Assembly (NCBI GenBank): GCA_918244965.1
Contig: CAKJYC010000049.1
Location: forward strand, 22,286 to 86,285
DNA: 64,000 nt
Reading direction: 5' to 3'
From: Clostridiales bacterium
GTDB lineage: Bacteria; Bacillota; Clostridia; Christensenellales; CAG-138
A program made the translations under genes and the position numbers. Under the pieces are notes generated by a model. It made no database searches, was not told where the DNA came from, and saw only the letters and a program-made list of their open reading frames with translations. Positions 8,612-55,479 of this stretch are shown piece after piece (position 1 is the first letter of the stretch; the number at the start of each line of letters is the position of its first letter).

Positions 8612-8668
8612 GCGTAAACGTTTACGCCCCTGTACATACATCATATCACCGAATACCGGCGTTGTCAA
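8612..8668 (-). promoter_or_regulatory. Promoter plus palindromic operator upstream of mgtC
   Basis: Minus strand: TTGACA (8668-8663), 17 nt, TATGAT (8645-8640), then 12 nt downstream the perfect palindrome GCGTAAACGTTTACGC (8627-8612). Confidence 0.65.
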
Positions 8669-8700
8669 CCGGATTCTGTAAAATGATACGTTCCGGGCGG

Positions 8701-10953
8701 TCAGCGCAGAACGAGCATATAGAGGAAGATCAGTGAGATCGCGCCGACCAGCATCAGAAGCGCGAACGACAGGTTGTCGGTCAGGCGGCGGCCGGTGTCG
8801 CGCAGCGTGCGCCGCGCGCGGTAGGCGGTGATCGCGTAGCGGCGGCCGCCCTGCTCCTCGTGCCCGCGGCGGATCGCGATGCGGTCGATGCGCTTGCCGA
8901 AGCGATAGGGGAGGGACGCGCGCGCCTCGTCCTTTTCGGGCGGCGGGCTGTCACGGTAGACGGTCTTTCTGAGCAGCAGGACCAGCGCATCGACGGCGTC
9001 GGACAGCGCGTGGGATACGACGGTAAAGATGCGGAGCGACCGCTTTGCGGCGGGGGCGAATACGCGGTTTTCGCCGAACTGCGCGGATGCGCCGGATGCG
9101 ATCCGGAACACGCGCTTTGCAGCGGGCGCCGTGACCCGGTTTTCGCCGAACAGCGCGGCAAGCCTGCCGCCGAGCGTCATCACGCCGCGCGCAAGCGGCG
9201 CGCTGACGCGGTTCTCGCCGAACAGCGCGGCAAGCGGACCGAAGATCCCCGGCAGCCATTTTAAGAGTAGCGGGCGGTAAACAAGCTCCTCCAGATCGAG
9301 CCGGGCGGGCCAGCGGTTCACATAGACGCGGACGCCGTTTTCACGCCGCATCAGCAGCGTGCGCACGACGCCGAAGTACAGCGCAAGGCCGATCGCGATC
9401 GAGATAAGCCCGCCCTTGAGATTCTCCCATGAAAGATAGTGCACGGCGTGTTCGAGCGGTCCCGCGTGCAGAAAGTCCGTGCCGAGGTCGGCGATCGCGT
9501 TCATGGAGGCGTTTGCCGTCATGCCCAGCGCGGGCAGAAGGAGCGCGGACAGCAGCAGCGCGATCGCGGTCAACGGCCGCATGTACCGGCGCTTTGCGTC
9601 GAATTCCGCCTGCCGCGTCGGGTGCCGTTCGACAAACAGCGCGACGAACAGCTTGGTCATATACGCGACGGTGATCCCGCCGGACAGCAGAAACAGCCAC
9701 TCGACCGCGCGCATGCCGAACGTGCCCTGACCGAGATGTGCAAGGTGGCCGATGTACTCGACGATGCTCTCATGCAGCAGCGTCTTGCTGATGTAGCCAG
9801 AAAACAGCGGGAACCCGCCGATGCCGAGCGCGCCGCAAAGGAATGCGGTCATCAGCAGCGGCTTTCTGCGGCCGAAGCCGCGGATATCGTTCAGGTTCAG
9901 CGCGTGCAGGTTCATATAAACGACCGCCGCGCACGAGAACAGCACGAGCTTGAACAGCGAATGGTTCATCATGTGCAGCAGCGTGCCGCGCGCGGCAAGC
10001 GCGTTTTCCTCGCCGAGCAGCGTCGTCATGGCGATCCCGACCAGAATGAAGCCGATCTGCGAGATCGACGAGCAGGCGAGCGTGCGCTTCAGATCGACCG
10101 AGAACAGCGCAAGCAGCGCGCCGAGCAGCATGGTGATCGCGCCGAGGATCAGGATGAGCGTTCCCCACGCAGGGTCGTGCCGGAACAGACGGCACGAGAT
10201 CGCGATCACGCCGAAGACGCCGGACTTGGTGAGAAGCCCCGACAGCAGAGCGCTCGCCGGGGCGGGCGCGACCGGATGCGCCTTCGGCAGCCAGATGTGC
10301 AGCGGGAACATGCCTGCCTTTGCGCCGAAGCCGAACAGCACGCAGCCGCCTGCGACGTACAGGATCCGCCTGTTGTCACAGCGCACAGCCGCGTCGTACA
10401 GTCTGTCGATCTCGGCCGTGCCGAGCGTGTGCTGCAGAAGAAACAGCCCGAACAGCGCCGCAAGTCCGCCGATGACCGCGACCGCAAGATAGGTGTTCGC
10501 GGCGCGTTTCGCCGCCTCCGTTTCTTCCTGCACGACCCACGGGTACGAGGTGAACGACATGATCTCAAAGAACACGAGCGCGGTAAACAGATCGCGCGCA
10601 AGGAACACGCCGACCGCCGCGCCGAGCGTCAGCAGGTTGAAGAAATAATAGCGGTTCGCGGTCGTGTAGTGCGAGAAGTATTCGCCGCCGATTAGGGTCG
10701 TCACGGCCCACAGGAACGCGATCACGACGAGATAGACCCGGCGGAAGCCGTCGACAGTCAGGTGCAGACCGAGCCCCGCGACGCCGTCGACGTCCGCGGA
10801 GAGGTCCGGCAGAAACAGCAGGGCCGTGCACAGGCCGAGCTCGATCAGCGTCGTGAGCGCAGCGAGCAGATTGCGCGCGCGAACGGATCGGCGTCCGGCA
10901 AGCCACGTGAGCAGCGCCATGCACATCGGGAAGAGGACCGGCACAAACAGCAT
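8701..10953 (-). CDS. Antiporter-like subunit (MrpA N-domain / NuoL / HycC-like) with a long C-terminal extension and terminal TM anchor
   Basis: GAKAGMFPLHIWLPKAHPVAPAPASALLSG...K motif of proton-conducting membrane transporters. Start at MLFVPVL (ATG 10953), with GGGAGGTG upstream. The C-terminal ~230 aa comprise a 3 x 24-aa repeat, a very basic segment and a final TM helix. Confidence 0.85.
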   Translation of the reverse strand: MLFVPVLFPMCMALLTWLAGRRSVRARNLLAALTTLIELGLCTALLFLPDLSADVDGVAGLGLHLTVDGFRRVYLVVIAFLWAVTTLIGGEYFSHYTTANRYYFFNLLTLGAAVGVFLARDLFTALVFFEIMSFTSYPWVVQEETEAAKRAANTYLAVAVIGGLAALFGLFLLQHTLGTAEIDRLYDAAVRCDNRRILYVAGGCVLFGFGAKAGMFPLHIWLPKAHPVAPAPASALLSGLLTKSGVFGVIAISCRLFRHDPAWGTLILILGAITMLLGALLALFSVDLKRTLACSSISQIGFILVGIAMTTLLGEENALAARGTLLHMMNHSLFKLVLFSCAAVVYMNLHALNLNDIRGFGRRKPLLMTAFLCGALGIGGFPLFSGYISKTLLHESIVEYIGHLAHLGQGTFGMRAVEWLFLLSGGITVAYMTKLFVALFVERHPTRQAEFDAKRRYMRPLTAIALLLSALLLPALGMTANASMNAIADLGTDFLHAGPLEHAVHYLSWENLKGGLISIAIGLALYFGVVRTLLMRRENGVRVYVNRWPARLDLEELVYRPLLLKWLPGIFGPLAALFGENRVSAPLARGVMTLGGRLAALFGENRVTAPAAKRVFRIASGASAQFGENRVFAPAAKRSLRIFTVVSHALSDAVDALVLLLRKTVYRDSPPPEKDEARASLPYRFGKRIDRIAIRRGHEEQGGRRYAITAYRARRTLRDTGRRLTDNLSFALLMLVGAISLIFLYMLVLR
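9040..9245 (-). repeat. Three in-frame 72-bp tandem repeats inside the CDS
   Basis: GG(T/C)T(T/C)TCGCCGAAC starts at 9066, 9138 and 9210 (exact 72-bp period). Encodes (A)LFGENRV(S/T/F)AP.A(R/K)... three times. Confidence 0.9.
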
Positions 10954-10966
10954 CGCATCCACCTCC

Positions 10967-12430
10967 CTAAATGAGCCCGCGCGCGATCGCGTCGGTGACC
11001 TGAAGGATCGGCTGTGCGAACACGCCGCACGCGAGCGTGCCGAGCGCAAGGATGACCATCGGGACGAGCATCTCCCAATCGGCCTCATGCACATCCGACA
11101 GGCCGGACAGGTCCGCCTGCCGGTCGGGGAACCACGCGCGCCGCGCCGGGATCAGCATGTAGATCGCGGTCAGAAGCGCGGAGAAGAGCAGCGCGCCCGC
11201 GCCGACGTAGGCGAGCCCGGAAACGTTCGCGGCGGCGGTGAGCAGATGCCACTTGCTGATAAAGCCGGAAAACGGCGGCAGACCGGTCAGCGCGACGGCC
11301 GAAACGGTGAAGCACGCAAAGGTGACGGGCATCCTCCGGCCGAGCCCGTCAAGCTCGTATACGCCGGTGCGGCCGGTTTTTTTCAGCACCGCGCCCGCGC
11401 AGAAGAACGCGAGGATCTTGATGCACGCATGCGCCGCCATGTGCAGAAGAGACGCGGACAGTCCGTCCGGCGTCAGCAGCACCGCGCCGAACAGCATATA
11501 GGAAAGATTCGCCACGGTCGAGTGCGCGAGACGGCGCTTGAAATGCGGCTCCTTGAGCGCCATCGACGAGCCGTAAACGATCGTGAACGCGGCAAGCAGC
11601 AGCGCGACGGTCTGCGCCCATGTGCCGGAAAGCAGCTCCGTGCCGAAGCAGTAATACGTCAGCCGGATCGCGGCGAACGCGCCCGCCGTAACGACCGCCG
11701 CCGCGTGCAGAAGCGCGGTCACCGGGGTCGGCGCGACCGAGGCGCGGATGAGCCATCCGTGCAGCGGGAAGATCGCGGCCTTGACGCCGAAGCCAAGGAA
11801 CCCGAACAGCCAGAAGAGACAGATCACGTCCCGTCCGAACGGGCGCGTCTCCAGGATGCCGCCCATCGTGAACAGCCCCGTCGCGCCGTTGGTGAGCAGA
11901 AAGACCATCGACGCGAACGCGAACGCCGCGCCGCCGAGCGAGAACAGCAGATACATGCGCGCGGCGCGCACGGCCTCCTTCGTCATCGGGTGCAGCACCA
12001 GCGGCACAGTCGACAGCGTCAGAAGCTCATAGAAGCAGTACATCGTGAACAGGTTGCCAGCCGTCGCCACGCCGAGCGTCGCGCCGTACGCCGCGGTGAA
12101 GAACCCGAAGAACATCGAAAGATGCGCTTCGTCCTTCATGTAGGAGCGCGCGTACAGCACGGTCAGCGGCCACAGCGTCGCCACGATGCCGACAAAGAAC
12201 CGGCCGAGCCCGTCGAGCCGCAGCGTAAACGACAGCTCCGGCGCAAAGCGGATCAGCTCGACCGGACCGGTCACGCCGGACAGCAGCACAGTCCAGCACA
12301 GCGCCGACGTCAGCACCGTGATCCCCAGCGTCGCATCCGCAAGCACGCGGAACGACCGGAGCTTCAGCACATACAGCAGAAGCCCCGATACGAACGGGAT
12401 CAGGATGGAGATCGGCAGCAGGATCTGCAT
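10967..12430 (-). CDS. mrpD: Antiporter-like subunit, MrpD/NuoN/NuoM family
   Basis: GVKAAIFPLHGWLIRASVAPTPVTALLHAAAVV motif, ~14 TM helices. Start at MQILLPI, with AAGGAGG upstream. Confidence 0.85.
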   Translation of the reverse strand: MQILLPISILIPFVSGLLLYVLKLRSFRVLADATLGITVLTSALCWTVLLSGVTGPVELIRFAPELSFTLRLDGLGRFFVGIVATLWPLTVLYARSYMKDEAHLSMFFGFFTAAYGATLGVATAGNLFTMYCFYELLTLSTVPLVLHPMTKEAVRAARMYLLFSLGGAAFAFASMVFLLTNGATGLFTMGGILETRPFGRDVICLFWLFGFLGFGVKAAIFPLHGWLIRASVAPTPVTALLHAAAVVTAGAFAAIRLTYYCFGTELLSGTWAQTVALLLAAFTIVYGSSMALKEPHFKRRLAHSTVANLSYMLFGAVLLTPDGLSASLLHMAAHACIKILAFFCAGAVLKKTGRTGVYELDGLGRRMPVTFACFTVSAVALTGLPPFSGFISKWHLLTAAANVSGLAYVGAGALLFSALLTAIYMLIPARRAWFPDRQADLSGLSDVHEADWEMLVPMVILALGTLACGVFAQPILQVTDAIARGLI

Positions 12431-12440
12431 GGACCCTCCT

Positions 12441-13907
12441 TTACACAAGCGATGCGGACAGCGACATCGTCCAGTCGGTCAACGGCCCCGCAAACAGGCC
12501 GAGCAGCAGCGACACGGCGGCGAGCACGGCGATCGGCAGCCACATCACGGCGGTGCCTTCGTTCGTGCGGTCAAGCGGCGTGAAGTCCTTTCCGGGGAAG
12601 AAGCCACGGACCGTGACCGGCAGCAGATACCCCGCCGTCAGCAGCGCGGACACGAGCAGCACGACCGGTGCAAGCCAGTTCAGCACGGAAAGGCCCGTAT
12701 CGAGCGCGCCGAGCGCAAGATACCATTTGCTGACAAAGCCCGACGCGGGCGGAATGCCGATCAGGCCCAGCGACGCGATCGTGAACGACCACAGCGTGAC
12801 CGGCATGGCTTTTCCGATCCCGCGCAGCTCCGATACGCGCGTCTTTTCGAGGTTGACGATGAACGAGCCTGCGACGAGGAACAGGCAGATCTTGATGCAA
12901 GCGTGGAAGACCACGTGCAGCAGCCCGCCCGCGACGCTCTGCTGCGTCATGCAGAACAGGCCGACGAGGATGTAGGAGATCTGGCTGACCGAGGAGTACG
13001 CGAGCCGCTTTTTGAACACGTCCTCGCGGTACGCCATCATTGAGCCGACGAATACGGTGAGCAGCGCAAGCGAGATCCATGCGATCTGCACCCACGTCCC
13101 GCGCAGAAACGCCGGGCCGACGGTGAAGTACAGAAGCCGCAGGATCGCCAGCACGCCCGCTTTGGTGATGACCGCGGAGAGCACCGCGCTCGCGGGGGCG
13201 GGGGCGACCGGATGCGCCGTCGGCAGCCAGCCGTGCAGCGGGTACATGCCCGCCTTTGCGCCGAATCCGATCACGCCTAAAAACACGGTGATCTCGATCA
13301 GCGTGCGGCTTTCTTCGACGGCGGCGTTCAGCGTGCCGCCCGCCTTGAAATCAAAGGTCGTGGTGAACCGCGAAAGCGTGAAGATCGCCAGAAGCGCCAG
13401 GAATGCGCCCGCGATCGAGTAAAACAGGTATTTCATCGCCGCGCGGATGGACTCCTGCGTGCGGTCGTGCAGCACAAGCGGCATGGACAGCAGCGTCGCC
13501 GCCTCGAAGAAGAGGTACATCGTGATCAGGTTCTCGGACAGGTCCATGCCGACGAGCGCGCCGAGCGAGAACAGCATGAAGGCGTAGAAGCTGTGCTGCC
13601 GCTCGCCGTGCGCCATGTAGCGGGTCGCGTACACGCCCGCAAACAGGAACCCGAACGCACCGATCGACAGAAAGATGCGCGAGACCGCGTCGGTGGCGAG
13701 GCTGACCGTCAGCGCGTCGGTCATCGAGAAGAGGAACACCCTTGCGTCCGGCAAAAACAGGTACCAGAGGCAGAGCGCCGCTTCGACGCCGAGCGCGGCG
13801 ACAAAGACCGCGTTCTGTGCGCGGCGGCCTGCGCGCTTCATCAGCGAAAGGCACACGCCCGCCGCAAGCGGTAAAAGCAAGAGGATGATCAACAGGATTC
13901 GGTTCAT
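12441..13907 (-). CDS. Antiporter-like subunit, MrpD/HyfB-like
   Basis: GAKAGMYPLHGWLPTAHPVAPAPASAVLSAVITKAG. 488 aa. 4-nt overlap with the upstream gene. Confidence 0.85.
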   Translation of the reverse strand: MNRILLIILLLLPLAAGVCLSLMKRAGRRAQNAVFVAALGVEAALCLWYLFLPDARVFLFSMTDALTVSLATDAVSRIFLSIGAFGFLFAGVYATRYMAHGERQHSFYAFMLFSLGALVGMDLSENLITMYLFFEAATLLSMPLVLHDRTQESIRAAMKYLFYSIAGAFLALLAIFTLSRFTTTFDFKAGGTLNAAVEESRTLIEITVFLGVIGFGAKAGMYPLHGWLPTAHPVAPAPASAVLSAVITKAGVLAILRLLYFTVGPAFLRGTWVQIAWISLALLTVFVGSMMAYREDVFKKRLAYSSVSQISYILVGLFCMTQQSVAGGLLHVVFHACIKICLFLVAGSFIVNLEKTRVSELRGIGKAMPVTLWSFTIASLGLIGIPPASGFVSKWYLALGALDTGLSVLNWLAPVVLLVSALLTAGYLLPVTVRGFFPGKDFTPLDRTNEGTAVMWLPIAVLAAVSLLLGLFAGPLTDWTMSLSASLV

Positions 13908-15403
13908 AGCGCCTCCTTCAACAGGATCAGCCCGTGTTCGATCAGGGTCACGACCGGCTTGGCCGCAACGCCGAAGCCGATGTTCATACAGAGAAACGCG
14001 ATCGCCGCGACGGCGAACGGGCGCTGCTCACGCATGCGCACGCGCGGTCCGTCCGGACCGGACGCCGGCGTGTACAGCCGGATCACCACGCGCATGAAGT
14101 ACCAGGTGTTCAGGATCGTGCTGACTGCCAGCACGATCAGCGTCGGGACGATCAGCTTCGGGTTGTCGAACGCGGCAAGCCCGAAGCGGTATTTACTGAC
14201 AAACCCCATCGTCAGGGGAATGCCGATCATGCTGAGCGCGCACGCCGTAAACGTCAGCCCCGCGAGGCGGTTTTTATGCCCCGCGCCGAGCCAGAGCTTG
14301 CGGTCGCGCCCGCCTGCGATCCGGGCGATCTGCGCCGCGGACAGAAACAGCGGCGGCTTGGTGATCGCGTGGGTCAGGATGTGGAACACCGAGGCCAGTA
14401 CGCCGAGCTGCGGCGACAGGCCGAAGCCCATGAAGATGTAGCCGATCTGCGACGCGGACGAGTACGCGATCATGCGGGCGACGTCCGTTTCCCGCGCGGC
14501 GCTGACGCTGCCGACGATCACGCCGATCGCGCCGAGCACGAACAGCACGTTCGATACGCCGCTTTTGTAAAAGACCTCGGTTCCGAACACGCGGAAAATG
14601 ACCCGCAGCAGGAAAAAGATGTATCCCTTCGACACGAGCCCGGACAGGATACCGCCGGACGCGGGCGTTGCGTAGCCGTAGGTATCCGGCATCCAGAAGT
14701 GGAAGGGGAACAGACCGCCCTTGACCGCAAGCCCGACCGTGACAAGACAGATCGAGGTCAGAAGCACCGAGCGGTACTGTCCGCTTTCCCACAGCGTGCC
14801 GATCGCGCGCGAAAGGTCCGGCATCAGAAGATGTCCCGTCACCGCGTACAGCAGGATCAGTCCGAGCAGAAACAGCCCGGAGCCGATCAGCGAGAAAATC
14901 AGGTACCGGATCGACGCAAGCGTCGTGCGGCCGAGCTGCCGGATCATCAAAAGCCCGCACGAGGCGACGGTGCTGATCTCGATAAAGACGTAGCCCGTGA
15001 ACACGTCGTTCGTGCAGCACAGCGCGATCAGCGACGACAGCACCAGTTCGCACATCACGTAGTAGTAGCGGCGCTTACCCTGCTCAAGGTCGTTTTCAAG
15101 ATGCGATCCGCCGCCGAGCAGGCATAAAAGCATGACGGTCGCGAACACGCACAGCAGCAGCGGTTCAAGCGTGCCGAAGAACAGCTCGTTGCCCCACGGA
15201 TGCGGATAGTGTCCCATCCGATAGGTCGTCGCCGCGTCGGAGGAGAGTCCGTATGCGAGCAGCAGGCCGAAGGCGATCGCGACGAGCCCGCACAGCGCAA
15301 GGCACAGCCGCCTTGCGGCCTTTTCCGGCAGGACTGCGCTCACGGCCGAACAGATCAGGCACAGCGCCGCGGCGAACAGGGGAAGGTTGACCGTAAACTC
15401 CAT
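13904..15403 (-). CDS. Antiporter-like subunit, MrpD/NuoN-like
   Basis: AVKGGLFPFHFWMPDTYGYATPASGGILSGLVSKG. 499 aa polytopic. Confidence 0.82.
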   Translation of the reverse strand: MEFTVNLPLFAAALCLICSAVSAVLPEKAARRLCLALCGLVAIAFGLLLAYGLSSDAATTYRMGHYPHPWGNELFFGTLEPLLLCVFATVMLLCLLGGGSHLENDLEQGKRRYYYVMCELVLSSLIALCCTNDVFTGYVFIEISTVASCGLLMIRQLGRTTLASIRYLIFSLIGSGLFLLGLILLYAVTGHLLMPDLSRAIGTLWESGQYRSVLLTSICLVTVGLAVKGGLFPFHFWMPDTYGYATPASGGILSGLVSKGYIFFLLRVIFRVFGTEVFYKSGVSNVLFVLGAIGVIVGSVSAARETDVARMIAYSSASQIGYIFMGFGLSPQLGVLASVFHILTHAITKPPLFLSAAQIARIAGGRDRKLWLGAGHKNRLAGLTFTACALSMIGIPLTMGFVSKYRFGLAAFDNPKLIVPTLIVLAVSTILNTWYFMRVVIRLYTPASGPDGPRVRMREQRPFAVAAIAFLCMNIGFGVAAKPVVTLIEHGLILLKEAL

Positions 15404-15406
15404 AGG

Positions 15407-15793
15407 CTACACCCCGTGTTCCTTCTGTGCCATCTTGTAGATTTCGTCCACGTTCAGGCTGTGATAGCGCCGGTACAGACGGATCGTCAGCGCCAGCAGC
15501 ACCGCCGTGACCGACACCGAAACGACGATGCCGGTGAGCACCAGTCCCGCGGGCAGCGGGTTGACGTAATGCGCCGGATCCGTGTCGTCGCCGCGGAGGA
15601 TCGGAGACAGGCGGTTTTCAATGTAGCCCAAAGACGTCAGCAGCAGATACGCCGCCGTGTCCATGATGTTGAGGCCGATAATCTTTTTGATCAGGTTGCG
15701 GTGCAAAAGCAGCGTGACGAACCCTACCGCGAACAGGATCACCGCCGCGACTGCGAACCGGGAATCCCAGAGCTTCATAAGGAAGTCGTTCAT
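15407..15793 (-). CDS. mrpC: MrpC/MnhC (NuoK-like) subunit
   Basis: 128 aa, 3 TM helices, LNIMDTAAYLLL...PLPAGLVLTGIVVSVS. 4-nt overlap with the upstream gene. Confidence 0.8.
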   Translation of the reverse strand: MNDFLMKLWDSRFAVAAVILFAVGFVTLLLHRNLIKKIIGLNIMDTAAYLLLTSLGYIENRLSPILRGDDTDPAHYVNPLPAGLVLTGIVVSVSVTAVLLALTIRLYRRYHSLNVDEIYKMAQKEHGV

Positions 15794-16695: not shown

Positions 16696-16942
16696 CGTCC
16701 GCCTTTCTGCGAATGTCGCGCAGCTTTTTCAGGGTGATAAAGAGCAGAATGCCGGATATGCCCGCGCCGACGGCGGCTTCCGTCACGGCGAGGTCCGGCG
16801 CTTTCATCAGCGCCCACAGGATCGACATCAGCACGCTGTACGCCAGAAAGATGACCAGCGACGCAAGCAGGTTTTTCGTGACACAGGTGGAGATCCCGCA
16901 TACGACCAGAAGTCCGAGGAGCAGCACTTCAAAGTATTCCAT
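16673..16942 (-). CDS. DUF4040 / MbhD-like small membrane subunit (equivalent to the MrpA C-terminal piece)
   Basis: 89 aa, 3 TM helices, ...PDLAVTEAAVGAGISGILL.... Position between mrpG and mrpB as in Mbh/archaeal Mrp loci. Confidence 0.65.
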   Translation of the reverse strand: MEYFEVLLLGLLVVCGISTCVTKNLLASLVIFLAYSVLMSILWALMKAPDLAVTEAAVGAGISGILLFITLKKLRDIRRKADDEKDRLS

Positions 16943-17279
16943 CCGCGTTTTCCTCCGTTTCGTCGGGATGCTCCATGTGCGAAAGCGCCGTCTCGTCGGT
17001 GCGCAATTCGAGCCGCGCGACCAGATGCGCCGCGATCGGCGTACCGATCCACAGGAACAGGATCAGAAAGAACAGCTTCCACACAAAAGCCGGTGCCTTT
17101 GCCGCCAGCATCAGCGCCGCCAGCAGAAACAGCGCGCCGAGCGTGTCGATGATCGCCGCGCAATGCATGCGGTTCAGTACGAATTTGAACCGGAACACGC
17201 CGAGGATCGACGTAAAGATCACGAATACGCCCGCCGCCGCCAGCACCGCGCAGAGTGTGAACCGTACCCAGTCAAGCAT
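16929..17279 (-). CDS. mrpG: MrpG/MnhG subunit
   Basis: 116 aa, LGVFRFKFVLNRMHCAAIIDTLG is typical of MnhG. Confidence 0.8.
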   Translation of the reverse strand: MLDWVRFTLCAVLAAAGVFVIFTSILGVFRFKFVLNRMHCAAIIDTLGALFLLAALMLAAKAPAFVWKLFFLILFLWIGTPIAAHLVARLELRTDETALSHMEHPDETEENADGIL

Positions 17280-46238: not shown

Positions 46239-46241
46239 TGC

Positions 46242-47084: not shown

Positions 47085-47093
47085 AGCTCCTCC

Positions 47094-48347
47094 TTATTGT
47101 TGCGGCAGGGTCGAACCGTGCCGCAGGGCCTTGACGACGGGCAGCTCTTCGCCGCTCAGGAAGCGGATCAGCGCGCCGCCGCCGGTGCAGATATAACCGA
47201 TCTTGTCGGTCAGCTTGTATTTTTCGGTCGCCGTGATGCTGTCGCCGCCGCCGAGGACCGTAAAGCCCTCGGTGTCCGCAAGCGCCTGCCACAGCGACTT
47301 GGTTCCGTATTCGCTCGCTTCCTGCTCGAACACGCCCATCGGGCCGTTGACGAACACCGTTTTGGCCGAAAGGATGCAGGCGCGATACTTTGCCGCAGTC
47401 GCGTGTCCGATGTCGACCGCGCCGACGTCGCTCGGCATCATGTAGATCGACGCCTCGCGCCGTTCGCCGTTTTCGACCCACGCAAGGTCGTCAGGCAGCA
47501 GGATCCTGTCGCCGAACCGCTCGTAGAGCGCCTTCGCACGGTCGAAGAACTCGGCGTAGTTCGACTTGCAGATAAACGCGCGGCTATAGCTTCCGATCTC
47601 CTGTCCGAGCGCGATCAGGAAGATGTTTGCGACCAGGCCCCCGGTCAGGATCGTATCGGCGACCCCGCGCTCCAGGACCGTCTGCATCATCAGAAACGCG
47701 TCGGAGATCTTTGCGCCGCCGAGCGCGAACACGCACGGACGGGCGGGGTCCTCCATGACGGAGGAGACGGTGCAGTATTCCTTCTCGAACAGCCTGCCCA
47801 TCGCGGACGGCAGGATCTGCTCGAACCCGCACAGGCTCGGCTGATCGCGGTGCGCGGCGGCAAACGCGTCGCACACGTACGCGTCCGCAAGCGGGGCGAG
47901 CTTCTGCACCAGCAGCGTTTTTGCCTGCTGCTCGTGCGAAAGATGCAGCTTCATTTCAAAGAGCGTCTGCTCCTCCGCGACGAAGCGCACGTTGTCCAAA
48001 AGCAAAACATCGCCATCGCAGAGATCACGGATGGCTTGTCTTGCCGCGGGGCCGCAGACGTCGTCGATCCATTTGACCTCCCGGCCGAGAAGGCGGGAGA
48101 GGACCGCGGCGTGCGGTTTGGTCGTATAAAAATTCTTGTACTCGATGTCGCTGCCCTGATGCGCCAGCAGCACGACCTTTGCGCCCTTTTCGGACAGCTC
48201 GCGGATCGTCGGCACGCAGGCCGTGATGCGGTTGATGCTTTTCAGCGTCCCCGCATCACGATCCACGGGCTGATTGATATCCACGCGGCAAAGGACCGTT
48301 TTTCCGCGCACCGAGAGTTCGTCCAGCGTTCTGATGCCGAATCGCAT
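47094..48347 (-). CDS. pgk: Phosphoglycerate kinase family protein, archaeal-type sequence
   Basis: 417 aa. RVDINQPV, LLAHQGS (canonical H(Q/L)GRP), LLLDNVRF, FVNGPMGVFE, GGGDSI. Confidence 0.8.
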   Translation of the reverse strand: MRFGIRTLDELSVRGKTVLCRVDINQPVDRDAGTLKSINRITACVPTIRELSEKGAKVVLLAHQGSDIEYKNFYTTKPHAAVLSRLLGREVKWIDDVCGPAARQAIRDLCDGDVLLLDNVRFVAEEQTLFEMKLHLSHEQQAKTLLVQKLAPLADAYVCDAFAAAHRDQPSLCGFEQILPSAMGRLFEKEYCTVSSVMEDPARPCVFALGGAKISDAFLMMQTVLERGVADTILTGGLVANIFLIALGQEIGSYSRAFICKSNYAEFFDRAKALYERFGDRILLPDDLAWVENGERREASIYMMPSDVGAVDIGHATAAKYRACILSAKTVFVNGPMGVFEQEASEYGTKSLWQALADTEGFTVLGGGDSITATEKYKLTDKIGYICTGGGALIRFLSGEELPVVKALRHGSTLPQQ

Positions 48348-48359
48348 GTGGAACCTCGC

Positions 48360-49418
48360 TTATTTCTTCTTGAATCTGCCGATCTTCAGGTATTCGTTCG
48401 TCTTTGCCGTGCCCTCTTCGCGGGTCAGCTGCATCTGCATCGCGGCGCGGATCGCGTCGATCGTTTCGGGGATCGTGACGCTCTCCTGCGGGATGTTGAT
48501 CGCGTACATGATGTCGTTGCCGCTCTCAACGATGCTGTCCTCCCACAGCCCGATCTCGTACATGTCGCCTCTGCGGTTGCCGAGATCGCGCGCGTACTTG
48601 AACAGGCTCGCGTTGCCCTTGAAGCCCTCGTCGATCGTGACGGTACGGATGCGCGGATGCGCGCGGAACGCTTCGAGCGCCATCTCGCGGGTGATCTTTT
48701 TGCCGTCTTTGGCGGTCGCCAGCACGGTGATGATGTGGCCGTGCGTGACCGGCGTGTGCACGAGGATGCCCGTCGCTTCGACGTGCGGCATGATCGTCAT
48801 CAGGTCGACCGCCTGATGCGACGGCGCCTTGTCGATCTGCAGCGCGTTGGTGAGGCCGCGGTGATAGTCGCCCGGATCCGCGACGCGGCGGATGATCGTG
48901 ATCGCGACCTTCTCGATGCCGATCGCGCGGTCAAGGCAGTCGACCGTGCGGATCAGGCCCGTCGTGTTGCAGCTGGTCAGCTTGAGGTAATCCTGACCGA
49001 CGCCCTTTTCATAGTTCGCATAGCCGTGGAAGAACACGTCCGCGACGGAGTTCTTTTCGCCGCCCTGGAAGATCGCCTTGACGCCGACCTTCTGATACAG
49101 CTCCTTGTTCTTTGCGCCGACGCCGCCCGGCGAAGAGTCGAGCATGATATCGACGCTTCTGCAAAGCTCCTCGAACGTGCCCGCAACCGGGATGTCATAG
49201 CGGTCGAACGCTTCACGGTCCGCGCCGTCGACGAGGTAGAGATTGTATTTGACGCCGTTTGCGCCGATCATGTCGTTCTCGCGCAGCGCGCGGATCGACA
49301 GTGTGGGCGCGAGGTCCGCAATGCCCACCAGCTCCATGTCGCCCTGCATGGCGACGCCGTCGGCCAGACGCTGACCGATCGTGCCGTAACCGGCGACTCC
49401 GACTCTGACTTTAGCCAT
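48360..49418 (-). CDS. gap: Type II (archaeal-type) glyceraldehyde-3-phosphate dehydrogenase family protein
   Basis: 352 aa from ATG 49418, with AAAGGAG 6 nt upstream. MAKVRVGVAGYGTIGQRLADGV...MELVG and the active-site SCNTTGL (Cys150) are hallmarks of archaeal GAPDH, not bacterial GapA (SCTTN). Confidence 0.8.
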   Translation of the reverse strand: MAKVRVGVAGYGTIGQRLADGVAMQGDMELVGIADLAPTLSIRALRENDMIGANGVKYNLYLVDGADREAFDRYDIPVAGTFEELCRSVDIMLDSSPGGVGAKNKELYQKVGVKAIFQGGEKNSVADVFFHGYANYEKGVGQDYLKLTSCNTTGLIRTVDCLDRAIGIEKVAITIIRRVADPGDYHRGLTNALQIDKAPSHQAVDLMTIMPHVEATGILVHTPVTHGHIITVLATAKDGKKITREMALEAFRAHPRIRTVTIDEGFKGNASLFKYARDLGNRRGDMYEIGLWEDSIVESGNDIMYAINIPQESVTIPETIDAIRAAMQMQLTREEGTAKTNEYLKIGRFKKK

Positions 49419-49432
49419 ATGCTGCTCCTTTC

Positions 49433-50446
49433 TCAGATCTCGTCGATGCGGACGGGACGGTTTTCCTTGAGGGACTTGCTGCACGCAAGCGCCAGCTTGA
49501 TGGACAGAAGGCCGTCCTCGATGCCGACCCACGGTTCCTTGCCGTTCTCGACGCAGTCGATGAACTCGCGGACCTCCGCCTGATACGAGCCCATGTAGCG
49601 CTCAAGGAAGAACCACAGCGGCTTTTCGCCCGTCACGCCGTCCACCGTGGACAGCACGATGTTGGACGCGGAATCGTTCGCGTTCTGCACACAGCCCTTC
49701 GAGCCGAAGACCTCGCCGCGCTGATCGTAGCCGTAGACCGCCTTTCTGGAGCCGTCGATGGTGGCAAGCGCGCCGTTAGAGAGCTTCAGCGTGATCGTCG
49801 CGGTGTCCACGTCGCCCGCTTCGCCGATCGCCGGATCGATGAGGCACGCGCCCTGCGCGTACAGCTCGACGATCTCCTGACCGGAGAGGTAGCGCACCAT
49901 GTCGAGGTCGTGGATCATCATGTCCATGAAGATGCCGCCGGAAACAGCGACGTACTTGGCGGGCGGGGGCTCCGGATCGCGCGAAGAGATGCGGACGAAC
50001 TGCACCTCGCCGATCTTGCCGTCCTCGATCGCCTTGCGCATCGCGCGGTAGTTGTGATCGTAGCGGCGGTTGAAGCCGACCTGATAGACGAGCTTCTTCG
50101 GGCTCGCCGCGAGCGCCGCCTTGACCTCTTCGATCTTTGCGATGCTCTGGTCGATCGGCTTTTCGCAGAAGATGTGCTTGCCCGCGGCGATCGCTTCAAG
50201 CGAAAGCGGGGCGTGCTGATCGGTCGACGCGCAGATCAGGACCGCGTCGATGCGGTCGTCCTCAAGGATCTTGCGATAGTCCGAATATACGTTCTCGATG
50301 CCTGCGGACTTTGCCCACGCGGCGACCTCCGGCTTGATGAACGGGTCCGCGATCGCGAGGATCCGCGCGCCGGGAACGCCGGTGAGAATGCTCTTTGCGT
50401 GGACCTGACCGATGCGGCCCGCGCCGATAATACCTACATTGACCAT
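49433..50446 (-). CDS. iolG: myo-inositol 2-dehydrogenase (Gfo/Idh/MocA family)
   Basis: GIIGAGRIGQVHAK, IFCEKPI, VGFNRRYD, SRDPEPPPAKY...GGIFMDMMIHDLDM closely resembles rhizobial IdhA/IolG from memory. Confidence 0.85.
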   Translation of the reverse strand: MVNVGIIGAGRIGQVHAKSILTGVPGARILAIADPFIKPEVAAWAKSAGIENVYSDYRKILEDDRIDAVLICASTDQHAPLSLEAIAAGKHIFCEKPIDQSIAKIEEVKAALAASPKKLVYQVGFNRRYDHNYRAMRKAIEDGKIGEVQFVRISSRDPEPPPAKYVAVSGGIFMDMMIHDLDMVRYLSGQEIVELYAQGACLIDPAIGEAGDVDTATITLKLSNGALATIDGSRKAVYGYDQRGEVFGSKGCVQNANDSASNIVLSTVDGVTGEKPLWFFLERYMGSYQAEVREFIDCVENGKEPWVGIEDGLLSIKLALACSKSLKENRPVRIDEI

Positions 50447-50497
50447 TGTATTCCTCCGTTTGTTTTCAATTTGTATGGATGCGGGATCGCTCCCGGT

Positions 50498-52063
50498 TCA
50501 TTCGCCGTACGGCTCGCCCTTGCCTTCGACGAGCGAGGCATAGGTGCGTTGGATCTTTGCCCAGTTCTGGTCGCGGTCGAGCGCGACGCCTCTGCCGACG
50601 CCGGACACGATGAGACCCGCGCCCTTCTGCTCAAGCATTTCGCCGAACTCGCGCAAAAGCGCGGGCGCGCTGCCGGGCTCGGTGGAGCGGCCGTCGAAGA
50701 TGACATGCACGAACACGTTTTCGACGCCCGCCTTCTTCGCCATATCGCACAGCGCGAGCGGATAGTCGATCGACCCGTGCGAGGACTTTTTCGTGAGCAG
50801 CGCAAAGAGATGCAGCGCCGTGCCGCGCTCTTTGACGCCGTTCAGCGTGTGCAGAAACACCGGGTTCTCCGCAAACGAGCCGTCCTTCATCGCGTTGTCA
50901 AGGCGCACGTCGTCCTGCAGGACCACGCGGCCGGAGCCGAGATTGATGTGGCCCGCCTCGGAATTGCCCGTCTTGCCCGCCGCAAGACCGACCGCCGGGC
51001 CGGACGCTTCGAGCTTCGCGTAGGGATACTCCCGAAGCAGCGCGTCCCACGCGGGCGTGTCCGCCGTAAAGATCGGGTTGTTGTCGGTCGGAAGGTCGAG
51101 ACCCCAGCCGTCGCAGATGAGCAGTAAAACCTTGTTCGGCTTTGCAAAGCGGAACAGCGGCGTGCCGGTCATTTCCGCGGGCGCGGGAAGGCCCATTGCG
51201 GACAGCACCGTGGGCGCGACGTCGCAGAGTCGGCCGCTCGTTTCGAGCTGTTCCGTGCCGTCGCCGATCGCGATGCAGGCGACGAGATTCGTCGTGTGCG
51301 AAACGTGCGGCTTGCCCTCCGGCGTGTGCAGAATCTCGATGTTGCCGTGGTCCGCGGTCACAAGTACAGTATAGCCCTTTTCGCGCGCGTACGCAACGGT
51401 TTTCCCGACATATTTGCTGATCGCTTCGGCTGCGACCGGCTTTGCCGCGTCCGAGGACGTATGGCCGATGACGTCGCCGTTTGCGAAGTTCGTCACGATG
51501 AAATCGTAGCCCTTGTCCAGCCCGCCGCACAGCGTTTCATACACCTCCGGCAGCTTCAGCTCCGGCACCGTTTCAAACGGCACGCCCTTGGGCGAGGGGA
51601 TGCGGATGTCCGTCTCGCCCTCGAACGGCTTCTGATTGCCGCCGTTGAAGAAGAACGTGACGTGCGCAAACTTTTCGCTCTCGGCAAGGTGCATCTGCGT
51701 CCTGCCGTTTTCACTCAGCACCTCGGCGAGCGTCTTCTGCACCTTGCTCGGCGCAAAGGCGATCGGCAGATAGGTGTATTTTTCGCTGTACATTGTCAGG
51801 ATCACGAAGTCCAGCGGATCGAGCTGCGTTCTCTCGAAGCCCTTGAACGCCGGATCGGTGAACGCATCGGTCAGCTCGGTCTCGCGCTCGCCTCTGCGGC
51901 AGCAGAAGATCACGCCGTCGCCGGGACGAACGAGACCGACCGGGCTGCCGTTTCGGTCGACAAGGTTCAACGGCTCGAAATGATACTCCGAGGCGACGGA
52001 GGCAAAGCGCTTTTGGGCAGCGCGGGCCAGCGCGTCGCCGCCGGCAAACTTGTATTCGCTCAT
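50498..52063 (-). CDS. Circularly permuted 2,3-bisphosphoglycerate-independent phosphoglycerate mutase (iPGM)-like phosphotransferase
   Basis: 521 aa from ATG 52063, with AAAGGAG 8 nt upstream. Residues 1-304 carry canonical C-terminal iPGM motifs (ESEKFAHVTFFFNGG, ANGDVIGH, TADHGN, SHTTN, EMTG). Residues 308-521 carry canonical N-terminal motifs (LLLICDGWG, GNSEAGH, LHLFALL, DGR, LDRDQNW). Confidence 0.8.
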   Translation of the reverse strand: MSEYKFAGGDALARAAQKRFASVASEYHFEPLNLVDRNGSPVGLVRPGDGVIFCCRRGERETELTDAFTDPAFKGFERTQLDPLDFVILTMYSEKYTYLPIAFAPSKVQKTLAEVLSENGRTQMHLAESEKFAHVTFFFNGGNQKPFEGETDIRIPSPKGVPFETVPELKLPEVYETLCGGLDKGYDFIVTNFANGDVIGHTSSDAAKPVAAEAISKYVGKTVAYAREKGYTVLVTADHGNIEILHTPEGKPHVSHTTNLVACIAIGDGTEQLETSGRLCDVAPTVLSAMGLPAPAEMTGTPLFRFAKPNKVLLLICDGWGLDLPTDNNPIFTADTPAWDALLREYPYAKLEASGPAVGLAAGKTGNSEAGHINLGSGRVVLQDDVRLDNAMKDGSFAENPVFLHTLNGVKERGTALHLFALLTKKSSHGSIDYPLALCDMAKKAGVENVFVHVIFDGRSTEPGSAPALLREFGEMLEQKGAGLIVSGVGRGVALDRDQNWAKIQRTYASLVEGKGEPYGE

Positions 52064-52077
52064 GATCGGTTCTCCTT

Positions 52078-52854
52078 TCAATGGATGCGCGGCGTCGGGT
52101 CCTCAGCGGTTTCGGGACAGAAGCGCCCGTCGCCGGGGAAGACGCGCAGCAGCTCGTCAAAGTGATGGATGATGCAGTCGGGCCGGTTCTCCTCGGTCAG
52201 CTTGAATTCGAGCCCGCCGGGGTATTCCGCGCCGACCGTGCCGGCGAAGCAGGACTGCTTCGCGCCGATGATGTCGCGCTTCAGGTTGTCGCCGACGAAG
52301 CAGCTCTCCTCCGGCCGCACGCCGGCTTCCGACAGCGCGAGGAAATAGATCGCGGGATGCGGCTTTCGGAGCATCGTCACCGAGCTTTGCTGCACCGTGC
52401 AGAACAGGTCGCGGATGCCGTCGCGATCGAGCCACTCGTCAATCTCGACCGTGCCGATCAGGTCGCTGATGATGCCGACGAGGTAGCCGCGCGTGCGCAG
52501 CTCCTTCACGGTTTCAATGCCCTTTTCGACGACCACGCGCTCGCCCTTCGCCCTGCGGAAGCAGTAGGTCAGCTCGACGGCGGCCTTCTCGATTTTCTCA
52601 CGGTCCCATTCCGGCACGAGCCAGCGGGTCCAGAGCATCGTTTCCGGCGCTTCGCACATGTACTTCAGCGCCCATTCACGGTAGCCGTCGTAGCGCTTGT
52701 TCAGGAAATCGTAGAACGCGTCGGCGTCCATGTCGGTGCCGCACAGTTCCTTGATGCGCTCGCGCGCCTGCTTGATAAACGGACGGTTGTCCTCGTCGAC
52801 CACGCGGAATGTGCCGCCGAGATCGAGAAAGATCGCCTTGATGTTTTCTTTCAT
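52078..52854 (-). CDS. HAD-IA-like hydrolase, tandem paralog 4
   Basis: FLDLGGTF, IISD, LRKPHPAIY, VGDNLKRDI. Start at MKENIKA, with GGAGGG upstream, 2 nt after the upstream stop. Confidence 0.8.
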   Translation of the reverse strand: MKENIKAIFLDLGGTFRVVDEDNRPFIKQARERIKELCGTDMDADAFYDFLNKRYDGYREWALKYMCEAPETMLWTRWLVPEWDREKIEKAAVELTYCFRRAKGERVVVEKGIETVKELRTRGYLVGIISDLIGTVEIDEWLDRDGIRDLFCTVQQSSVTMLRKPHPAIYFLALSEAGVRPEESCFVGDNLKRDIIGAKQSCFAGTVGAEYPGGLEFKLTEENRPDCIIHHFDELLRVFPGDGRFCPETAEDPTPRIH

Positions 52855-52856
52855 AT

Positions 52857-53624
52857 TCAGACCCTCCGGACCTTGTCCCATGCGACGTGCGGCGCCTTCG
52901 GGAAGATCTCCTTGAGTTCGTTGAAGTCGAAGATGACCGCGTCGGGACGGTTCTCATCCGTGATCTTCTCCTTCGCGAGCTTCTCCGGCGTCGTGTACAG
53001 GATGAACATGCCGTAGCCCGCAAGGCGCGTGCCCTCGACGTCGCGGTTCAGGTTGTCGCCGATGTAGACGCAGCGCTCCGGGCGAACGCCCAGGAGGTCG
53101 CACGCCTTGTTGGAGATCGCGGGATCGGGCTTTCTTATGCCCTCGACGCACGAGAGCAGCACCGCGCCGAAATACTGTTCAAGCCCGTCGGCCTTGAGCC
53201 AGCGCGGGATCTCCTGCGAGGTCACGAGGTTTGAGATGATGCCGAGCTTGTAGCCGTTCGCGTACAGGTCTTTGATCGACTGCGCGCCGTTCGGGGCGAC
53301 CACGCGGCGGCCGTCCTTGTTGCGGTACTCGATCGTCAGCTCGATCGCATTCTTTTTGATCAGCTCACGGTCGTATTCGGGCGTCAGCCACTTGGTCCAA
53401 AGCTCCTCCTCCGGCGCTTCGCGCATCGTCTCGAAGCACCACTTGCGGTAGCCCGCGTAGCGGTAGTCGAGGAATTTGCAGAATTCGTCCGGGTCGCCTG
53501 TTTCGCCGCACATTTCGGCGATCTTGCGGCGCGCCTCCGCTTCAAACGCGGCGTCGCGCTCCACCAGACGCAGCGTGCCGCCGAGATCGTAGAAGATCGC
53601 GTCAAATTCTCGTTCGTTTGCCAT
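52857..53624 (-). CDS. HAD-IA-like hydrolase, tandem paralog 3
   Basis: FYDLGGTL, IISN, IRKPDPAI, IGDNLNRDV. Confidence 0.8.
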   Translation of the reverse strand: MANEREFDAIFYDLGGTLRLVERDAAFEAEARRKIAEMCGETGDPDEFCKFLDYRYAGYRKWCFETMREAPEEELWTKWLTPEYDRELIKKNAIELTIEYRNKDGRRVVAPNGAQSIKDLYANGYKLGIISNLVTSQEIPRWLKADGLEQYFGAVLLSCVEGIRKPDPAISNKACDLLGVRPERCVYIGDNLNRDVEGTRLAGYGMFILYTTPEKLAKEKITDENRPDAVIFDFNELKEIFPKAPHVAWDKVRRV

Positions 53625-53636
53625 ACTTCGTTCTCC

Positions 53637-54371
53637 TTATTTGTTTTCGTCCGAAAGGGGCGGGAAGATGTCCAGAAGCTGACCGATCCGGGTGATCGTG
53701 TAATCGGGCTGCAGAATGATTTCCTGCGGCTCGTTTTTGATCGTGTCCGGCTCGTCGATGCGGATCATCAGCGCATAGCCGGCCTTGCGCGTGCCCTCGA
53801 CGTCGCGGATCGGATTGTCGCCGACGTACGCGCACTGTTCGGGCGTCTTGCCGATCGCGCGGCAGGCGAGGTGATAGATCGCGGGGTCGGGCTTACGAAG
53901 CCGTACCTTGGAGGACAGGATGACCGTCTTGAAGTAGTGCGCCACGCCGTCGGCGATCATCCAGTCGGGGATCTCGGTCTCGGTGATCGTGTTCGCGATG
54001 ATGCCGAGCGTGTAGCCGCGGCGGTCCAGCTCGATGATCGTGGACTTCACGTCGTCGCGCGGGACGCGCCGTCCATCATGGTCGCGCCACAGACGCGTCA
54101 GTCTGCCTGCGTGCGCGCACACGCGCTCCGGATCGTAATCCGGCAGCAGGTGCTGGCTCCAGAGCTCCATCTCGCCCGCGTCAAGAAGCGTCTTTTTCAC
54201 CATGCTGCGGTACTTCTTCCAGCGCGCTTCGAGCTTCTCGAAGAACACGTCGTGCGGCTCGGTCGCGCCGACCAGCTCCATCAGTTCCCGCTCCGCCGCA
54301 TCGGAGAATTCCTTGTCCTTGATGACGATGCGCAGCGTGTTGCCGACGTCAAAGAAAATGGTGTCCGTCAT
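53637..54371 (-). CDS. HAD-IA-like hydrolase, tandem paralog 2
   Basis: FFDVGNTL, IIAN, LRKPDPAIY, VGDNPIRDV. Start at MTDTIFF, with GGAGAGAGG upstream. Confidence 0.8.
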   Translation of the reverse strand: MTDTIFFDVGNTLRIVIKDKEFSDAAERELMELVGATEPHDVFFEKLEARWKKYRSMVKKTLLDAGEMELWSQHLLPDYDPERVCAHAGRLTRLWRDHDGRRVPRDDVKSTIIELDRRGYTLGIIANTITETEIPDWMIADGVAHYFKTVILSSKVRLRKPDPAIYHLACRAIGKTPEQCAYVGDNPIRDVEGTRKAGYALMIRIDEPDTIKNEPQEIILQPDYTITRIGQLLDIFPPLSDENK

Positions 54372-54402
54372 TGTCCTCTCTCCTTTTCTGTATTGCAAAC
54401 TG

Positions 54403-55161
54403 TTATTGGTGATTCCGCTCCCGGAGGATCCCCGGCAGCTCGTTCAGTTCCCGGATCACATAATCGGCCTTCGGCGCGTCCGGCCCCTGAAAGGCGACGT
54501 CGCGGTGGGCGATCGAGGGGTTGTTGATGCGCACGATCAGGCCGAGGCCCGCATTGCGCGCGCCGAGCACATCGCGGGAGATCGTGTCGCCGACATAGCC
54601 GGTCTCCGCCGCCGTCACGCCCATGCGGGAAAACGCGATCTCAAAGATCCTCGGATCGGGCTTGCGGATCCCGGTCTCGCTCGACATCACGATGCATTCC
54701 ATGTACTGCGCGATCCCGTATTCGTTCATCATGTGCGGGACGAGCGAGGTGGAGATGATGTTGGAGATGATGCCCTGCCGGACGCCCATCGCGTGGATCT
54801 CTTTGATCGTTTCGACCAGATACGGCTTTCGCATGTTGATCATCCGCTCGTAGTCATAGAGGAAGCTCAGCTCCTCGGCGATCGGGGCAAGCCGCTCCTC
54901 GCCGATGTGAAACTCCTTGAGGTAGTATTCGTTCCAGATGACGGGGGCGGGCAACTCGGTCTTCTCGCGCTCGCCGCGGTGCTTGTACGCTTCGCCGTTC
55001 TCGCGCAGCAGCAGCTTCAGCTGTTCCGGCGTCGTGTCGAGCACGATGCCGTAATCGTTGAGCCTGCGGATCAGCCGGTCGGCAAAGCGAAGCTCCGAAT
55101 CCGCGGTGCGCGTGGCGGACTGCAGTGTTCCGCCGAGATCGTAAAGCAGCGTCGTGATCAT
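54403..55161 (-). CDS. HAD-IA-like hydrolase, tandem paralog 1 (first gene of the operon)
   Basis: LYDLGGTL, IISN, IRKPDPRIF, VGDTISRDV. Start at MITTLLYD, with GGAGG upstream. Confidence 0.8.
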   Translation of the reverse strand: MITTLLYDLGGTLQSATRTADSELRFADRLIRRLNDYGIVLDTTPEQLKLLLRENGEAYKHRGEREKTELPAPVIWNEYYLKEFHIGEERLAPIAEELSFLYDYERMINMRKPYLVETIKEIHAMGVRQGIISNIISTSLVPHMMNEYGIAQYMECIVMSSETGIRKPDPRIFEIAFSRMGVTAAETGYVGDTISRDVLGARNAGLGLIVRINNPSIAHRDVAFQGPDAPKADYVIRELNELPGILRERNHQ

Positions 55162-55190
55162 GGTTTCGCCTCCGAATTTCCCCATATTTA

Positions 55191-55241
55191 CGAAAACGTT
55201 TGCGCTATCATAATTGTAAACCGCTTACCGGTTTTTGTCAA
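55191..55241 (-). promoter_or_regulatory. Promoter plus operator of the 15-gene HAD-iol operon
   Basis: Minus strand: TTGACA (55241-55236), 17 nt, TACAAT (55218-55213), 7 nt, then GCGCAAACGTTTTCG (55205-55191). Confidence 0.7.
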
Positions 55242-55428
55242 TACATAAAAACGGAAGAACACGCAGGGATTTCGGAAAAAGATGCAAACGGGTCAGGATG
55301 CCCGGAACCGGCGGAAAGCAAAGGGAAATATACGGTTTTTGCGGGAGGGAAGGGCGGAGGGGAGGCGCTTTTGCGCATGAATAAGCATACGGTTTCGGAC
55401 GGCGGAGCGGAATCGTCTTTTTTTCGCG

Positions 55429-55479
55429 TTGACAAATGGCGGGAACGGTTGTAAAATGAATTGTCTGAAAACGTTTGCA
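55429..55479 (+). promoter_or_regulatory. Promoter plus operator (cre-like) of the LacI-family regulator operon
   Basis: TTGACA (55429-55434), 17 nt, TAAAAT (55452-55457), 8 nt, then TGAAAACGTTTGCA (55466-55479). Confidence 0.7.

Follow-up and report, generated by a model that had tools for sequence, protein, structure and literature searches.

Transcription factors of the LacI family have been surveyed on a large scale: among 1303 of them, 1173 have even-length palindromic sites with CG at the centre, 72% are autoregulated and for more than 75% of the sites the distance to the downstream start is 30-140 bp (Ravcheev et al. 2014, PMC4052901). Seven non-orthologous groups of LacI-type "IolR" regulators for inositol were described in the same survey, and most members of the family are released from DNA by their ligand, while PurR binds DNA together with a corepressor (PMC4052901). 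Known PurR sites of Escherichia coli are ACGAAAACGTTTGCGC (purHD) and TCGCAAACGTTTGCTT (purMN) (PMC3159470). In Bacillus subtilis the LacI-family repressor IolQ (DegA) controls the inositol dehydrogenase gene iolX from operators at +4 to +30 that have a cre-like sequence, its inducer not being demonstrated in vitro (PMC5504672). Here we analyse a 64 kb window (the whole 64,000-nucleotide stretch, positions 22,286 to 86,285 of contig CAKJYC010000049.1) of a Clostridiales bacterium, with 61.6% GC and Firmicutes-style promoters. Five palindromes of one type are found in it, upstream of mgtC, an operon of HAD, ABC transporter and phosphoesterase genes (the HAD-ABC operon, which begins with HAD_A), the membrane pyrophosphatase gene hppA, a 15-gene operon that begins with HAD1, and a gene for a LacI-family regulator. 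From sequence comparison, the local LacI-family protein (55513-56523) probably binds these five sites as a repressor.

The first-pass annotation of the window had located the five sites by eye, and each was recovered where it had been placed. They are even-length palindromes of 14-22 bp, perfect or nearly so, with CG at the centre, and were scored with a position weight matrix (PWM) trained on sites from orthologous loci only, none of them from the window.

Operator 1, 8612-8627: GCGTAAACGTTTACGC, a 16-bp perfect palindrome with the 14-mer core at 8613-8626; PWM 20.6 bits
Operator 2, 19265-19282: AGCGCAAACGTTTGCGCT, an 18-bp perfect palindrome with the core at 19267-19280; PWM 25.2 bits
Operator 3, 30901-30922: GTTTCGTAAACGTTTACGAAAC, a 22-bp perfect palindrome with the core at 30905-30918; PWM 28.6 bits
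Operator 4, 55191-55205: CGAAAACGTTTGCGC, with the core at 55191-55204; PWM 28.4 bits
Operator 5, 55466-55479: TGAAAACGTTTGCA, a weaker variant that also fits cre; PWM 20.0 bits

The 14-mer YGNAAACGTTTNCR occurs five times in the window against 0.03 expected, a number reached in none of 100 shuffles, and the core AAACGTTT occurs six times against 0.78 expected; CGNAAACGTTTNCG is present exactly at four sites (8613, 19267, 30905 and 55191). A matrix comparison of promoters with coding DNA had been proposed for the whole genome, and within the window the strong hits were only intergenic: the five operators scored 20.0-28.6 bits and the next best match, which is coding, 10.1 bits. The caution that intragenic copies might be missed by eye was justified to the extent of one additional copy of the core at 35706-35713, inside the permease gene (35648-37477) of a second ABC system (ABC2), with non-palindromic flanks and a PWM score of 7.6 bits. 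Copies with one mismatch at 11218 and 50710 are both intragenic and score 10 bits or less, and the divergent region 34026-34141 and the paralogous ABC2 system have no operator. The placement of all five sites in non-coding DNA holds, but the non-coding share, given earlier as ~7%, is ~3.6% by our gene map, making the chance placement of all five even less likely.

Four of the operators follow a promoter of the type TTGACA-17-TAnnAT, with 10-11 of 12 consensus matches each.

mgtC promoter, 8640-8668, minus strand: TTGACA-17-TATGAT, 11/12, TG-extended; operator 1 begins 12 nt past the -10
HAD-ABC operon promoter, 19224-19252, plus strand: TTGACA-17-TAAGAT; operator 2 begins 12 nt past the -10
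15-gene operon promoter, 55213-55241, minus strand: TTGACA-17-TACAAT, 11/12; site 4 begins 7 nt past the -10 and its 14-mer core 8 nt past it
Regulator operon promoter, 55429-55457, plus strand: TTGACA-17-TAAAAT, 11/12; operator 5 begins 8 nt past the -10

The distances measured here (12, 12, 7 and 8 nt) agree with the 7-13 nt claimed before for four of the five sites. A protein bound to an operator just past the -10 blocks initiation or early elongation. With the most plausible start codons, 29-56 nt separate the 14-mer from the ATG.

Operator 1 to the mgtC ATG at 8575: 37 nt
Operator 2 to the HAD_A ATG at 19319: 38 nt
Operator 3 to the hppA ATG at 30975: 56 nt
Operator 4 to the HAD1 ATG at 55161: 29 nt
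Operator 5 to the LacI ATG at 55513: 33 nt

The support for the local regulator is comparative. Homologues of the regulator are numerous in uncultured Clostridia, and a scan of contigs from one genome per species provided 80 loci with orthologues at 51-82% identity. They belong to rumen, gut and digester metagenome-assembled genomes labelled Christensenellales, Oscillospiraceae, Lachnospiraceae or Bianqueaceae, plus a few Sphaerochaeta and Treponema bins. Comparison across orthologous LacI loci, recommended in the first-pass annotation, showed that the motif travels with the regulator orthologues in these 80 loci. AAACGTTT was found 192 times in the 1.22 Mb that they comprise, against ~10 expected, with 168 copies upstream of homologues of the window genes and 8 inside them. 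The exact 14-mer is located upstream of the regulator gene in 70/81 cases, of the HAD1 operon in 49/56, of the ABC permease in 7/12 and of hppA in 4/9. Homologous HAD-ABC operons carry operators in related loci, and the EEP-family phosphoesterase gene has the exact site upstream in 2/6 cases, with three more at one mismatch, and heads operator-bearing operons in five loci (L044, L052, L058, L059 and L073).

The position of the sites is conserved as well. All 49 HAD1-proximal operators lie 8-21 nt past a sigma-70-like promoter (TTGACA-17-TAnnAT), and those of the regulator gene mostly 2-13 nt past one; in the surrounding sequence conservation is confined to the -35, the -10 and the operator, the flanks having diverged. 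When all 8-mers were counted without any prior in the 350 nt upstream of 53 orthologues of 60% identity or less, AAACGTTT ranked first (45/53), and the next palindrome was found in 7/53. Across 131 orthologous sites the consensus is symmetrical. C and G occupy the outer positions of the HAD-operon sites in 49-52 of 53 cases, and the promoter of the regulator itself shows a mixture (C 44, T 26; G 38, A 34), indicating that operator 5, of the TG...CA form, is a weaker version of the same operator and not a conserved cre in its own right.

At its N-terminus the regulator carries a LacI-type helix-turn-helix, along with a periplasmic-binding-protein-like effector domain. Over its full length it matches the solved structures of CcpA, RbsR, PurR and LacI with E values of 1e-33 to 1e-45, and its structural likeness to CcpA, RbsR and PurR is about equal. 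It belongs to none of the equivalogs scored: the scores are 191.6 bits for CcpA (TIGR01481, cut-off 442.35) and 199.4 bits for PurR (NF007979, cut-off 501), and those for RbsR, CytR and GalR are also under the cut-offs. The helix-turn-helix, recognition-helix and hinge residues are invariant in orthologues at 56-81% identity, matching the invariant motif across the same orthologues, and the gene order LacI-PHP-PfkB is kept in most related loci. The adjacency of gene and sites, the site at the regulator's own promoter and their co-conservation over deep divergence all indicate the local protein as the binder. The earlier proposal was that either this protein or CcpA co-regulates the five units; comparative genomics speaks for the first of them and finds little for the second.

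Several observations weigh against this assignment. The loci were picked via the regulator and cover +/-10 kb around it, leaving the regulon beyond this distance unseen. Upstream of HAD_A the exact 14-mer is present in only 10/28 loci, a site of its own was found for mgtC in 0/13 cases in related genomes, and the promoter scan gave no recognisable sigma-70 promoter next to operator 3 at hppA. Furthermore, sites of the CGnAAACGTTTnCG class are recognised by other, even distant, LacI-family proteins such as E. coli PurR, and a paralogue encoded elsewhere or CcpA could share them; some related genomes have two paralogues of the regulator, 52-55% identical to the query, on one contig (L056/L067, L053/L072).

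The last two points are the basis of the alternative that survives best, namely that a different LacI paralogue encoded outside the window binds the operators and the local regulator has another target or specificity. In one paralogue subgroup (L067, L072 and L077), sites of the TGAAAACGTTTGCA type do occur beside an IolG-like gene. We consider this alternative unlikely, since the divergent arrangement of regulator and operon, with one site per promoter, is kept over the whole range of 51-82% identity, a local LacI-family regulator is typically recognised by autoregulation together with adjacency (PMC4052901), and the Pfam/NCBIfam gene map gave no second transcription-factor gene in the 64 kb. 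The subgroup itself (52-53% identity; L067, L072, L077 and L078) is found near the IolG-like gene (66-68% identity), with TG...CA-type sites AAAATGAAAACGTTTGCAATTT ~250 nt upstream, and twice shares a contig with a HAD-associated paralogue.

It could also be that the sites are cre elements bound by CcpA with HPr-Ser-P, in which case the link among the five units would be general carbon catabolite repression. The first-pass annotation had pointed out correctly that the last site fits the cre consensus: operator 5, TGAAAACGTTTGCA, is an exact match to TGNAANCGNTTNCA, the only one among the five. Inositol-related LacI operators can overlap cre, as discussed for B. subtilis IolQ (PMC5504672), and the solved structures most closely related to the regulator include CcpA, with a similar recognition mode. 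However, operators 1-4 have C/G at the outer positions where cre has T/A, with two mismatches each to TGNAANCGNTTNCA / WTGNAANCGNWNNCW, and the outer C/G is precisely what the orthologous HAD-operon sites retain. Words resembling cre show no enrichment, with 18 in the window where 22 are expected. The motif goes together with this particular regulator gene and also stands upstream of it, and the local protein is far under the CcpA cut-off, the genome's own CcpA being encoded outside the window. We therefore regard CcpA as very improbable as the main binder, although it may act at operator 5. Palindromes arising by chance or with a non-regulatory role, such as restriction-modification targets or hairpins, might be suspected because AAACGTTT is short and AT-rich and intergenic DNA is AT-richer than coding DNA in a 62% GC genome, but this explanation is effectively refuted by the 192 copies against ~10, the fixed spacing to promoters, the shuffles, the conservation of sites within diverged flanks and the 8-mer ranking upstream of distant orthologues.

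With the local regulator as the preferred binder, the genes associated with its putative operators, and their neighbours, are the following.

7850-8593, minus strand: mgtC (MgtC/SapB family), PF02308, E 8e-37, probable start ATG 8575
8701-18034, minus strand: ten-gene Mrp/Mnh-type antiporter operon, headed by the EEP-family phosphoesterase
18057-19178, minus strand: EEP-family phosphoesterase, head of the Mrp/Mnh operon and divergent from operator 2
19301-30825, plus strand: HAD-ABC-phosphoesterase operon, assigned by Pfam, its substrate-binding protein (SBP) by fold
30975-33131, plus strand: hppA, membrane H+/Na+-translocating pyrophosphatase, PF03030, E 8.5e-261
33198-34025, minus strand: Cof-type HAD
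34142-39102, plus strand: second, paralogous ABC system, with no operator
39162-55185, minus strand: 15-gene operon, HAD1 from ATG 55161, assigned by Pfam and NCBIfam
55513-56523, plus strand: LacI-family transcription factor of 336 aa, PF00356 with PF13377/PF00532
56520-59358, plus strand: PHP-domain phosphoesterase, divergent PfkB-family kinase and MFS transporter, co-transcribed with the regulator

The HAD-ABC operon codes for HAD_A, a fused ABC permease, an ATPase, an FbpA/AfuA-like lipoprotein SBP (23231-24535), an unknown protein of 182 aa, an MBL hydrolase, an unknown protein of 526 aa and a purple-acid-phosphatase-like protein of 995 aa. The SBP has no Pfam hit and its sequence found no match in a search against the PDB. 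The best structural superpositions of its confident predicted model (predicted local distance difference test score, pLDDT, 89) are with MctA (Mg-citrate), FbpA/HitA, two proteins that bind glucose-6-phosphate (AfuA and VcA0625) and one that binds pyridoxal phosphate. Ligands in the class of MctA, FbpA and AfuA are anionic, phosphorylated or metal-chelated. The paralogous ABC system consists of a lipoprotein without Pfam hit, a fused permease and a double ATPase. A sigma-70 promoter of its own is located at 34152-34180, and the system is divergent from the Cof-type HAD gene.

The 15-gene operon had been called a HAD-iol operon, and both kinds of genes are indeed there, but the name covers only part of the content. 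It includes four HAD paralogues, a permuted cofactor-independent phosphoglycerate mutase (iPGM), IolG, type II GAPDH, PGK and a transketolase split into N and C halves, followed in our inventory by a LarAH6-type malate racemase, malic enzyme, IolE, an IolB-like gene and IolD. IolG (448>355), IolE (406>290) and IolD (906>715) pass their NCBIfam equivalog cut-offs.

Some of these proteins are unusual. The iPGM-like protein (50498-52081, minus strand) passes the equivalog cut-off of cofactor-independent phosphoglycerate mutase (450>331) with circularly permuted domains, its residues 47-310 corresponding to profile positions 240-504 and its C-terminus (395-523) to the iPGM_N part; the gene directly follows the four HAD genes in 52/80 related loci. 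The five HAD paralogues (52078-55161, minus strand, and 19319-20077, plus strand) match TIGR02253 only below its cut-off, and their motif I is D-[LVM]-G-[GN]-T instead of DxDxT, so that they lack the Asp+2 general acid/base of classical HAD phosphatases. The third HAD paralogue of the 15-gene operon (52857-53624, minus strand), compared over loci L001-L023, is unusually conserved: its amino acid identity is 94-100% in loci with 70-82% for the regulator and 60-78% for HAD1, and it keeps 84% where that of the regulator has fallen to 60%.

To see whether an RNA element could account for the conserved leaders, the Rfam families were searched; the single hit was an unrelated lysine riboswitch (RF00168, 84.6 bits, 1722-1897, minus strand). 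It is located upstream of a 4HBT thioesterase-like gene (1263-1664) and a gene for a beta-keto-acid cleavage enzyme (BKACE, 425-1252), a context that suggests lysine-controlled genes of lysine fermentation.

The first-pass annotation had linked hppA and mgtC to inositol and phosphoester catabolism, and the related genomes bear this out, for hppA through operators and for mgtC through its position as an operon tail gene. In the closer relatives L006, L016 and L036, an operator of its own precedes the hppA start by 51-55 nt; in L054, L063 and L065 hppA comes after the iPGM-like gene, with both on the same strand. Alignment of the hppA upstream region of the window with those of the three closer relatives shows conservation only of the operator, which is the main conserved block, an upstream terminator-like hairpin and the ribosome-binding site; hppA may be transcribed from a weak promoter of its own or by read-through. 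The hairpin, long and with a T-run, is located at 30836-30895 (plus strand), between the purple-acid-phosphatase-like gene and the hppA operator, and is kept in the three relatives with sequence changes.

In 13/18 loci, those with an annotatable upstream neighbour, mgtC follows a regulon gene on the same strand (hppA, the gene for the 526-aa unknown protein of the ABC operon, PfkB or the iPGM-like gene), and in L035 the order on one strand is LacI-PHP-PfkB-MgtC-MrpEFG...D. The mgtC gene of the window looks like one that became a separate unit with its own promoter and operator. The divergent EEP-mrp operon is a possible member of the regulon in this genome; a distance of 52 nt or more separates operator 2 from the -35 of either candidate EEP promoter, both located downstream between the operator and the EEP gene, which leaves repression of EEP-mrp from operator 2 unproven. 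Genes for PiT/PHO4 phosphate transporters were found directly behind exact operators in three other loci (L038, 1171-2199, plus strand; L061, 11734-12795, minus strand; L071, 11715-12743, minus strand).

The regulon is probably devoted to the utilisation of inositol phosphates, plausibly derived from phytate, a substrate suggested by the iol genes, the fold class of the SBP and the presence of at least nine predicted phosphoesterases. In five distant genomes (L023, L029, L031, L046 and L060) the same operator follows a consensus promoter, precedes the ATG by ~27 nt and heads a UxaE-IolM-IolN-IolO-like operon (389-5043, minus strand, in L060, where IolM and IolN pass their cut-offs with 500>450 and 303>245). 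The replacement of IolG/E/D/B by these genes is a non-orthologous pathway replacement under one regulator. According to a reference cited in PMC3750489, the alternative IolM/IolN route of inositol degradation was first described in Thermotoga.

Mechanistically, a dimer of the regulator would use its helix-turn-helix and hinge helices to bind the 14-bp consensus CGnAAACGTTTnCG. The operator at four promoters would span roughly +1 to +25, past the -10, and the bound repressor would block RNA polymerase; at the regulator's own promoter the weaker TG...CA variant would provide negative autoregulation. The repressor would be released by a metabolite of the pathway, for which an inositol phosphate or a phosphorylated catabolite of inositol is the most plausible candidate. 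The genes then switched on would include the FbpA/AfuA-type ABC importer, the five atypical HADs, the permuted iPGM, the PHP, MBL and purple-acid-phosphatase-like esterases, the PfkB kinase and the inositol catabolism genes IolG/E/D/B, together with ion and phosphate housekeeping by the H+/Na+-pyrophosphatase and MgtC and, in other genomes, Mrp and PiT.

A more speculative idea, which we find unlikely, is that these genes form an undescribed cytoplasmic pathway for inositol polyphosphates (e.g. phytate) that transfers phosphoryl groups instead of only removing them by hydrolysis. It would be allowed by HADs without the Asp+2, by the adjoining permuted iPGM, PGK and type II GAPDH, and by co-regulation with the H+/Na+-pyrophosphatase and, elsewhere, with Mrp and PiT. 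If phosphate were handed to inorganic phosphate (to give pyrophosphate) or to glycerate, phosphoester energy could be conserved as ion-motive force or ATP.

The operator can be used as a computational label for genes that would be switched on together in uncultured rumen and gut Clostridia. The set so labelled joins inositol catabolism by two alternative routes, an importer, unusual phosphoesterases, a pyrophosphate-driven pump, MgtC, Mrp and phosphate transporters, and is a testable candidate for the use of feed phytate-derived inositol phosphates by abundant uncultured bacteria. The putative repressor and operator also make a defined pair usable for experiments or for inducible expression tools. 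Our literature search found no relevant description of this gene cluster, of the regulon or of a phytate ABC importer.

The mechanism is that of an ordinary LacI-type repressor and operator, and it is the content of the regulon that is not previously described in the searchable literature. Among the known systems, E. coli PurR shares the operator to the point that the window 16-mer at 55189-55204 is ACGAAAACGTTTGCGC, identical to the purHD PUR box, a likeness through which a motif-first scan of metagenomes would return mostly unrelated regulons; however, the local regulator is not a PurR equivalog and its targets are HAD, iol, ABC, hppA and mgtC genes instead of purine genes. With CcpA and cre it shares the protein family and a 14-bp CG-centred pseudo-palindrome, and the site at 55466-55479 fits cre, but the strong sites have outer C/G and the motif is tied to one gene neighbourhood and not to many catabolic operons. 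Compared by operator and theme, B. subtilis IolQ is similar in being LacI-type and related to inositol, with the operator downstream of the transcription start, and different in its consensus (AGAAARCGCTTKCK against CGnAAACGTTTnCG) and in having a single known target instead of a multi-operon regulon. In layout the system is like the local LacI regulators of the large survey (PMC4052901), with an even CG-centred palindrome, autoregulation, sites 29-56 nt from the starts, a regulator divergent from its main target operon and control of inositol catabolic genes. Unlike the typical local regulon of this family, the one proposed here is larger, with five transcription units in the window alone, and is not confined to sugar catabolism, as it takes in a membrane pyrophosphatase, MgtC, transporters of phosphate and many phosphoesterases.

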